A stretch of 64,000 bases of DNA. Origin: Desulfatiglandales bacterium (lineage in GTDB: Bacteria; Desulfobacterota; DSM-4660; Desulfatiglandales; Desulfatiglandaceae). Below are positions 33,271 to 33,957 of the stretch, in pieces. The position numbers and the translations under genes were made by a program. Under the pieces are notes generated by a model. The model was given only the letters and a program-made list of their open reading frames with translations. It did not search any database and was not told the origin of the DNA. The first letter of the stretch is position 1. Each line of letters begins with the position of its first letter. The stretch spans positions 2,752,001 to 2,816,000 of the forward strand of contig OY762721.1 in the NCBI GenBank assembly GCA_963666345.1, given 5' to 3'.

Positions 33271-33378
33271 GATGAATTTACCTTTTAAATCTGTGAGATA
33301 TCAGATGGCGCAGCAGATATGCAAGCTCAATCTTTATGGTCGGCCGTGCGGTTTGGCCGCTTCCCTCTTCTTATGTTT

Positions 33379-33916
33379 GGTTCTTCTCCAACTTAGTTGT
33401 CGAAGAGGGTCCAAGGAGTCAAGGGTTCCAGGAATCAAGGGTTTACTTTCAAGGGATTTGATTATCACTTTGAGCATTGCCCCGACATCCCCTGTTTTCC
33501 TTCTTAATTTTCAAAGCCTTTCTTCTTTCAAATAACCCAGGTAAGCTGATGTTATGTACCGGGTTTCCAGTTCACAGGCTGAACCTTATGCAATATAGAG
33601 AAATCTCACAGACTCTATAGCCGTTTTTTTCCCATACCCTTAGGCGGTATCCCTTGATACGAAAACAGCGGATCTTCTGATTCGGGAGGTAAAACAGTAT
33701 TGTTCATTTTCAAAAAAACGTTTCGTTTCTTTATACATATGCAAACAAGGTGTATGCGATTTTTTTCTTAACGGTTAACCGGCTATAATCTTTAAGCTTT
33801 TCACTCGACCCCTCGACCCCTTGAAACCGGGAACCCGCTGCGAAGCAGTGGGACTGAGCGAAGCGTAAGCGGAGCAAAGAAACCTTTATTTAGACCAACT
33901 CTTTTGGAGATGACCT
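33379..33916. mobile_element. non-autonomous transposable cassette (imperfect 21-bp TIRs, 8-bp target-site duplication) carrying a four-helix-bundle pseudogene
   Basis: Left end GGTTCTTCTCCAACTTAGTTG versus right end reverse complement AGGTCATCTCCAAAAGAGTTG (15/21 match); flanked by direct repeat TTATGTTT at 33371-33378 and 33917-33924; no transposase. Confidence 0.7.
33440..33800 (-). pseudogene. decayed four-helix-bundle (23S rRNA IVP / bAvd-like) protein gene
   Basis: Manual translation ..CLHMYKETKRFFENEQYCFTSRIRRSAVFVSRDTA*GYGKKT..RFLYIA*GSACELET..LGYL..L*..AMLKVIIKSLE; three stops, one frameshift, no start codon. Confidence 0.8.
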
Positions 33917-33957
33917 TTATGTTTTAACCTCTTGATTTCGGGGCGGGGTTACCTTGC

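Follow-up and report, generated by a model that had tools for sequence, protein, structure and literature searches.

What kind of element occupies the uppP‒pfk spacer, and by what means did it arrive there? The question arises in a stretch of 64,000 nucleotides from a Desulfatiglandales genome (contig OY762721.1 of assembly GCA_963666345.1), which was analysed as a whole and is hereafter called the window. The spacer measures 759 bp and houses a 538-bp segment (33379‒33916) that contains inverted ends and the remnant of a four-helix-bundle gene of the PF05635 family, and no other gene. This segment, in our view, is very probably a mobile insertion cassette (MIC), now decayed, that descends from an insertion sequence (IS) of the ISL3 family. 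MICs as such are known; the novelty lies in this particular member, in what it carries and in the way its parts are nested. A sequence-only reading of the same DNA had described 8-mers on both flanks, inverted ends, short repeats and a decayed gene, and each of these features was found at the place that it had given.

The segment is abutted on both sides by the same 8 letters, a target-site duplication located at 33371‒33378 on the left and 33917‒33924 on the right. The left end (33379‒33399, forward strand), GGTTCTTCTCC..., shows no mismatch to the 21-nt left-end motif of the family. The right end (33896‒33916, reverse strand; family consensus GGATCATCTCC...) shows two mismatches to its motif and has a degenerate tip, in which two of the last three bases are off the family consensus. 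The ends form imperfect inverted repeats, with 78% complementarity between 33382‒33399 and 33896‒33913. No similarity to a transposase was detected in the open reading frames (ORFs) of at least 60 codons within the 538 bp.

Copies of the segment are spread over the genome, which is a single contig of 4.16 Mb. BLASTN with 33300‒34000 detected 82 loci, and 27 long copies can be aligned at their termini with single-base precision, reading GG(T)TCTTCTCCAAC... at one terminus and ...GGAGATGATCC at the opposite one. Scanning for the two 21-nt ends with up to 4 mismatches gave 136 end matches and, within a limit of 900 bp, 44 inward-facing pairs, of which one is spurious (a 31-bp self-pair); a loose scan with 11-nt ends was too noisy and was replaced by this one. 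The 8-mers abutting the 44 pairs agree at 8/8 positions in 24 pairs, at 7/8 in 11 and at no more than 6/8 in 9. In control 8-mers, taken 20 bp farther out, agreement never exceeds 4/8, and accordingly none of the 44 control pairs reaches 5/8. The duplicated 8-mers vary from copy to copy and were judged AT-rich by eye. The duplications and the shared ends are real and far beyond chance, and the prediction of the sequence-only reading, that other copies would have the same ends next to different 8-bp duplications, was borne out.

Cassettes are 0.4‒0.6 kb long and differ in whether they carry the gene: four-helix-bundle gene sequence is present in 27 of the 44 pairs and missing from the other 17. 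Beyond these 27, there is an intact copy at 3089063‒3089543 of the genome, flanked by an 8/8 duplication and more divergent at its left end. The resulting 28 gene-bearing copies are 69‒99% identical to each other (median 85%), and the nearest relative of the window copy is 89% identical to it. Single linkage at 90% identity or more yields a cluster of 17 copies, the largest subfamily, whose majority consensus already has a broken frame and several of whose members have a common stop before the GYGRK motif. The two closest members of this cluster (99.4%) differ in their flanks and in their duplications.

If the segment was inserted, a related population might retain the site as it was before. 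Logan contigs of four public runs were compared with 32900‒34400. Run X6, a sediment metagenome from a different study, provided an 830-nt contig (depth 9) with flanks ~97% identical to the window, which spans 33019‒33374 (8 differences) and 33924‒34394 (16 differences), the shorter side being 255 nt. This contig skips 549 bases and has 3 letters in between, leaving exactly one 8-mer length, and the first four letters and the last letter of the 8-mer are conserved. A related sediment population has the empty-site structure that had been predicted for relatives, with a single 8-mer, at the place of 33917‒33924, for 8-mer, element and 8-mer. The contigs of runs X2‒X4 end at 33405 and 33855, as expected for a repeat. 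Contigs that join 33913 back to 33377 were also observed in X2 and X3, with only 26‒31 letters on the shorter side; this joint could come from a circle, from two elements placed head to tail at another locus or from an artefact of the assembly graph.

Other sources bear on the same site. Scanning metagenomes for a 32-nt word of the left flank returned one contig, which is 100% identical over 3032 nt and has the site occupied; it comes from the same organism and is therefore uninformative on the empty allele. The nearest compared genomes belong to other genera, with ~70% DNA identity in pfk, and show only a short spacer: the uppP‒pfk spacer of G008, G024 and G028 is free of the element and 150‒230 bp long. 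In another genome, G011, the spacer is 680 bp (locus L011, ~8380‒9060 of G011:C194) and its sequence is unrelated to the cassette; it may be a different insertion.

The origin of the ends was traced in 151 sampled genomes of the order. The 21-nt cassette end, with at most 2 mismatches, occurs in 32 of them, covering 4 of 6 families, whereas all of them are free of the reversed control pattern. Many matches stand ~30 or ~120 bases away from where a contig breaks off, as is characteristic of a repeat that was not assembled. In contig G013:C249, a cassette-type end directly adjoins the C-terminal part of an ISL3 transposase, with the stop codon within the end, and close relatives of this transposase fragment (87‒100% identity) are present in 8 of the 151 genomes. 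A full IS of 1343 bp was found in G055:C2 (L027, 1484‒2826), with ends GGATC... and GGTTC..., and a second full IS of 1344 bp in G109:C62 (L023, 306‒1649). The two ORFs of L027 match DDE_Tnp_ISL3 (PF01610; 7.2e-20 and 9e-44), HTH_Tnp_ISL3 (PF13542; 7.3e-11) and Zn_ribbon_ISL3 (PF14690; 1.3e-06). Elements of the ISL3 family generate 8-bp duplications, have ends starting with GG and measure ~1.2‒1.5 kb, and the IS in G055 fits these traits in its length, its GG-starting ends and its 8/8 flanking repeat.

The ends of this cognate IS are unequal: GGATCATCTCC... is located upstream of the transposase and GGTTCTTCTCC... at the transposase stop, the stop codon lying within the right inverted repeat (IRR). 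The cassette has both. Its left end in the window agrees with the IRR of the G055:C2 IS at 20/21 positions, and its right end agrees with the left inverted repeat (IRL) of the G109 IS at 17/21, a value that rises to 19/21 for the right end of the intact paralogue against the IS IRL. Cassette and IS ends have the same left/right asymmetry at positions 3 and 6, and the orientation of the cassette gene equals that of the IS transposase. The features by which a MIC is recognised are present, namely inverted repeats without a transposase, a target-site duplication and the ends of an autonomous ISL3 IS (19‒20/21).

Because the ends match those of the IS, the duplications are 8 bp long and the gene is in the transposase's place, we infer from these sequence comparisons that the MIC is moved in trans by a transposase of the ISL3 type, not of IS1595. 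The cassette retains both unequal IS ends, GGATCATCTCC... at the side of the transposase start and GGTTCTTCTCC... at the side of its end. The four-helix-bundle gene stands in for the transposase in the same orientation, enclosed by mirror-image arms of 7‒8-base repeats. In the mechanism we propose, a cognate-type ISL3 transposase, supplied in trans, would bind the ends and make a staggered cut of 8 bp at which the cassette is inserted. The suggestion that a non-autonomous element explains the scattered occurrence of the gene family is supported in this way. IS1595, which had been offered as an example of the parent family, was rejected: PF12762 has no match in the genome, and the ends belong to an ISL3 element. 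In passages of PMC13216065, ISL3 elements are described as replicative and an AT-rich tropism is raised as a possible cause of intergenic insertions, and the AT-rich targets of the cassette are in line with the tropism reported there.

Several observations weigh against this derivation. The homology between IS and cassette is confined to the ~21‒23 terminal bases, and a clear duplication was not seen at the G109:C62 copy. A transposase between the same ends, as the sequence-only reading had anticipated, exists in G055 and G109 but was not found in the cassette's own genome, where both ORFs from the IS in G055, used as tblastn queries, match only three resident ISL3 copies at 28‒36% identity; no transposase lies between paired ends of that genome either, six long end-to-end intervals included. 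Cassette copies 97‒99% identical to one another are present there even so. In both full IS copies, the transposase is divided into two overlapping frames (247/258 and 176 codons) at a run of eight A (~2000‒2030 in L027 and ~1100‒1130 in L023), and a -1 shift would fuse them. Such a split transposase may require a frameshift or may be inactive; the eight-A run could reflect programmed frameshifting, slippage or a shared defect. A good duplication is lacking in the 9 pairs at 6/8 or fewer, and 4 of 6 gene loci that lie between both ends in the order's genomes have no duplication. The empty site comes from one short metagenome contig, and its 8-mer differs from that of the window at 3/8 positions, above the ~3% divergence of the flanks. 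As a separate observation on the long intervals between end-like matches, one of them includes an ORF at 3096008‒3096496 of the genome with a YHIVWCPKYR motif, which we take to be typical of Y1 transposases of the IS200/IS605 type.

What does the cassette carry? The window copy of the gene is a pseudogene of the PF05635/TIGR02436 family (33439‒33799, reverse strand), recognised by its similarity to the intact paralogue. In tblastn-type matching, 33439‒33768 corresponds to residues 11‒120 of the paralogue at 60% identity, with three in-frame stops (one TGA and two TAA), AAG in place of the ATG start codon and at least one frameshift. The intact paralogue has 120 residues and matches PF05635 (136.5 bits, 4.9e-40; cut-off 33.8) and TIGR02436 (136.2 bits, 4.8e-40; cut-off 24), with a solved relative in PDB 2gsc (4e-28). 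The family named by the sequence-only reading is confirmed by these scores above the cut-offs, whereas the kinship with Avd, the accessory protein of diversity-generating retroelements (DGRs), appears only as weak matches below the cut-offs, to bAvd (1.3e-05, 26.1 bits; cut-off 40) and NF033474 (1.2e-05, 25.5 bits; cut-off 80). PF05635 and bAvd are the only matches, no recognisable nuclease or recombinase domain is present in the protein, and PADLOC assigned the paralogue to none of its families.

Among the 22 four-helix-bundle matches listed for the genome, only 2 are full-length and free of stops. Between genomes, all 10 unsaturated pairs of intact cassette genes have dN/dS of 0.08‒0.19, and the cargo is under purifying selection where intact. 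Since copies with a dead gene (the 17-copy cluster) and gene-less copies (17 of the 44 pairs) have also transposed, the four-helix-bundle gene is a passenger that is dispensable for movement and lies outside the transposition machinery; since dN/dS is this low between genomes while dead copies spread, it is a selected passenger. The claim that the gene spreads as a cassette stands in so far as the gene lies in a transposing cassette, and needs correction in that the cargo is not required.

Inside the ISL3-type ends, the gene has repeat arms of its own. Repeats of the TCAAGGG/TCGAGGG type occur at 33406‒33458 and 33804‒33826, and the two sets are mutually inverted. The arm downstream of the gene remnant (33400‒33460) consists of degenerate 7‒8-base repeats of the TCAAGGG type and is inverted with respect to 33804‒33843 (40 nt at 70%; 19 nt at 84%), while the arm upstream of the remnant (33804‒33826) consists of 8-base repeats, twice CTCGACCC and then CCCTTGA. 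Arms of this kind were examined in the 80 best species-catalogue loci, of which 73 were testable and which represent relatives from many phyla. In 57 of the 73, reverse complementarity between the 170 nt before and the 170 nt after the gene exceeds the 95th percentile of displaced controls (median score 22 versus 11), and the arms are repeated heptamers, often AGGNNNN. The TCAAGGG/TCGAGGG arrays of the window are the arms of such an inner package. For the intact paralogue, a long-range stem formed by the two arms and enclosing the ORF is predicted, at -149.5 kcal/mol (z -5.2). Two open, armed four-helix-bundle genes without ISL3 ends are present in the same genome at 2953954‒2954301 and 2066716‒2067072, with identities of 39% and 66%, respectively, to the intact gene of the cassette, and the former has a distinct heptamer set of the GGTGACC/GGTAATC type. 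The structure is two-layered, with an armed gene unit like an intervening sequence (IVS) of rRNA placed within ISL3 ends, and the duplications and the empty site belong to the outer layer.

How far could other processes produce the same picture? The flanking 8-mer and the inverted ends could be thought of as chance in an AT-rich spacer, or the copies as products of segmental duplication, since AT-rich targets make short matches commoner and 9 of the 44 pairs have no good duplication. The copy alignment, in which flanks vary between copies, the 35 of 44 pairs with 7/8 or better against no control pair at 5/8, the absence of the reversed pattern from all 151 genomes and the empty site refute this origin, to which we attach practically no probability. 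A different mover deserves more attention. The genome has an ISL3 IS of 1349 bp in three copies (1172257‒1173605, 3211806‒3213154 and 3541257‒3542605) that are identical over 1349/1349 positions, and this IS, with ends beginning GGTTCATCC, may have moved the cassettes of this genome now or recently in place of the cognate IS. It encodes the sole ISL3 transposase found in the genome (430 residues), its identical copies suggest recent activity, and each copy lies at an AT-rich site with a different 8-bp duplication. Its ends (GGTTCATCCGGCAAATGCC...) agree with the cassette ends at 7‒8 of the first 8 bases, and it would account for cassette copies at 97‒99% identity in a genome in which the cognate transposase was not found. 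On the other hand, the ends diverge past base 8, with overall agreement of 10‒12/21, and the transposase is only 28‒36% identical to the cognate one. The resident end motif occurs just 7 times in the genome, and therefore the resident IS has no miniature derivatives of its own. The cognate IS, for its part, may be carried by a replicon that was not assembled, or its loss may be recent. We regard movement by the resident IS as unlikely.

The inner package raises a further alternative, namely that the repeat-armed unit is itself mobile, the protein and the arms driving its spread, and that the ISL3 ends are incidental. The armed packages without ISL3 ends in 57 of the 73 relatives and at two loci of this genome agree with it, as do the purifying selection on the cargo and the two full-length open copies kept in the genome; a mobile-element origin was also proposed for rRNA IVSs (Ralph and McClelland 1993, as cited in PMC4990558). 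However, the duplications abut the ISL3-type ends and not the arms, and at the empty site exactly one 8-mer is left at the position of the outer ends. Spread is also seen for copies whose gene is broken or missing, although an intact copy could supply the protein in trans, and the protein is without a recognisable nuclease or recombinase domain. An armed unit as the driver is thus very improbable, and the origin as an ISL3-derived MIC is the one we retain.

Known systems resemble the ISL3-derived cassette in different respects. The closest by build are the MICs, whose original example, according to passages of PMC3913671 and PMC4133298, is MIC231 of Bacillus cereus, derived from IS231A, and which include the qnrD mic elements. 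As described there, these have in common with the cassette the inverted repeats of an IS, the lack of a transposase, a passenger in its place and the duplications, and dependence on a transposase in trans is probable for the cassette too. The parent of MIC231 is an IS of the IS4/IS231 group, whereas the parent here is an ISL3 element; moreover, the cassette differs from MIC231 in its cargo, a PF05635 gene with inverted arms of its own, and in its high copy number (44 pairs in 4.16 Mb), grading into gene-less miniature elements. With the ISL3 IS of G055:C2 and G109:C62, the cassette shares the 21-base ends, the gene orientation and 8-bp duplications at AT-rich targets, and it differs from them in having no transposase, an interior that is unrelated past ~23 bases and a length of 0.4‒0.6 kb versus 1.3 kb. 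A kinship by cargo connects it with Avd, which belongs to the same fold family. Avd as the identity of the cargo was rejected on the score of 25.5 bits against a cut-off of 80, with no other gene in the element; unlike a DGR, the 538 bp have no room for a reverse transcriptase or a template repeat. No description of a PF05635 gene in an IS-derived cassette was found in the papers searched, which did not include subscription journals or ISfinder.

The ORF-bearing IVSs of 23S rRNA genes (S23p of Coxiella burnetii, and those of Leptospira) resemble the inner unit. As presented in passages of PMC4990558, they share with the cassette a size of ~430‒540 nt, a PF05635 ORF between complementary sequences able to form a long stem and a sporadic occurrence. 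That 2016 study calls their origin unclear, citing a transposon-remnant proposal from 1990 and a mobile-element proposal from 1993. The cassette differs from an IVS in lying outside rRNA genes and in having DDE-type ends and duplications at the DNA level. Since the 23S gene of this genome (606500‒609522) contains no cassette copy and none of 40 related loci overlaps rRNA, we only infer a link to the IVSs. Five draft genomes rich in cassettes contained no assembled 23S gene.

With this reservation, a wider reading may be sketched, which we regard as possible but rather doubtful. The repeat-armed unit would be a widespread selfish module, whose RNase III-type stem would allow cheap residence in transcribed DNA such as operons and rRNA genes, and which would be captured between the ends of any DDE transposon at hand; the ORF-bearing IVSs of 23S rRNA would be such insertions. 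In a bolder form, the protein may bind the arm repeats and aid mobility or RNA processing. If the module is of this kind, the ISL3 cassette of the Desulfobacterales would be the first DNA-level vehicle caught in the act.

The connection of a PF05635 gene with a vehicle has a more immediate significance. Few small orphan proteins of bacteria are as common as those of PF05635, which are scattered in multiple copies. One lineage is now tied to a defined transposition system, of which both ends, the 8-bp duplication, an empty site and a candidate transposase are in hand, and therefore the movement of PF05635 genes becomes testable at the bench. The cassette gives both the orphan family and the old question of the IVSs a testable vehicle. 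In addition, cassettes account for dozens of 0.2‒0.6-kb repeats in Desulfobacterales genomes, by which draft assemblies are broken.

How widely does the cassette occur? A PF05635 protein is present at E ≤ 1e-10 in 110 of the 151 genomes of the order. Among the 13 closest relatives of the gene in these genomes (62‒73% identity), 6 lie between both ends, 3 have one end and 4 have none, and 2 of the 6 have duplications of 8/8. The end motif was absent from 16 more distant four-helix-bundle loci. In the best 80 relatives of the species catalogue, a sample that overlaps with the order's genomes and is not independent of them, 9 have both ends (3 with duplications of 8/8 and 2 of 7/8) and 6 more have one end. 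All end-bearing catalogue loci are in metagenome-assembled genomes (MAGs) of the Desulfobacterota type, including a Desulfosarcina and a Desulfatiglandales, and no ISL3-type ends were found among the Planctomycetota, Bacteroidota and other members of these 80 whose identity is at most 60%. The surroundings of 80 relatives were also searched generically, for inverted ends of any kind with an 8/8 duplication, which gave 2 loci, one of them already known, with none in 146 control scans; this generic search missed known imperfect ends and is therefore uninformative on other IS families. In a Planctomycetaceae MAG (L103, 1107‒1637), a four-helix-bundle gene was observed with inverted matches of 16 nt (13/16) and a GC-rich direct repeat of 8/8, which may be part of the arm repeats and not a true duplication.

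Returning to the window, the insertion lies between a BacA/UppP gene (32491‒33270, reverse strand; PF02673, 7e-73) and a phosphofructokinase gene (34030‒35133, forward strand; PF00365, 3.5e-89). A promoter-like site of pfk (33958‒33986, forward strand; TTGACA, 17 nt, TATATT; 11/12 matches) is situated 34 bp downstream of the insertion, and the CTTGACA...TATA layout is also present upstream of pfk in G008, G024 and G028. Within the element, promoter and terminator scans gave nothing exceeding shuffles, and Rfam had no match in 33000‒34300 at E up to 1. Since the right tip is mutated and the gene dead, most copies in the genome are eroded and the cognate transposase was not found there, the window copy is most likely a relic that no longer moves, 34 bp ahead of the pfk promoter.

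A last feature of the window copy is a hairpin module of ~56 nt (33826‒33882, forward strand), which makes up an extra ~48 nt relative to the intact paralogue, in which no such module is present. Modules of this type, ~56‒62 nt long and composed of ACCGGGAACCCGC, a stem-loop and GTGGGACTGAGCGAAGCGTAAGCGGAGCAAAGAA, were observed at ~55‒69 places in the genome (69 BLAST pieces), for example at 2064495‒2064572, 2020855‒2020917 and 539545‒539625. They are found within cassettes and gene-less miniature elements, as tandem repeats and as single units in spacers, and both orientations are represented. The same 8-bp stem is formed in two variants of the module, by way of three compensating base-pair changes.

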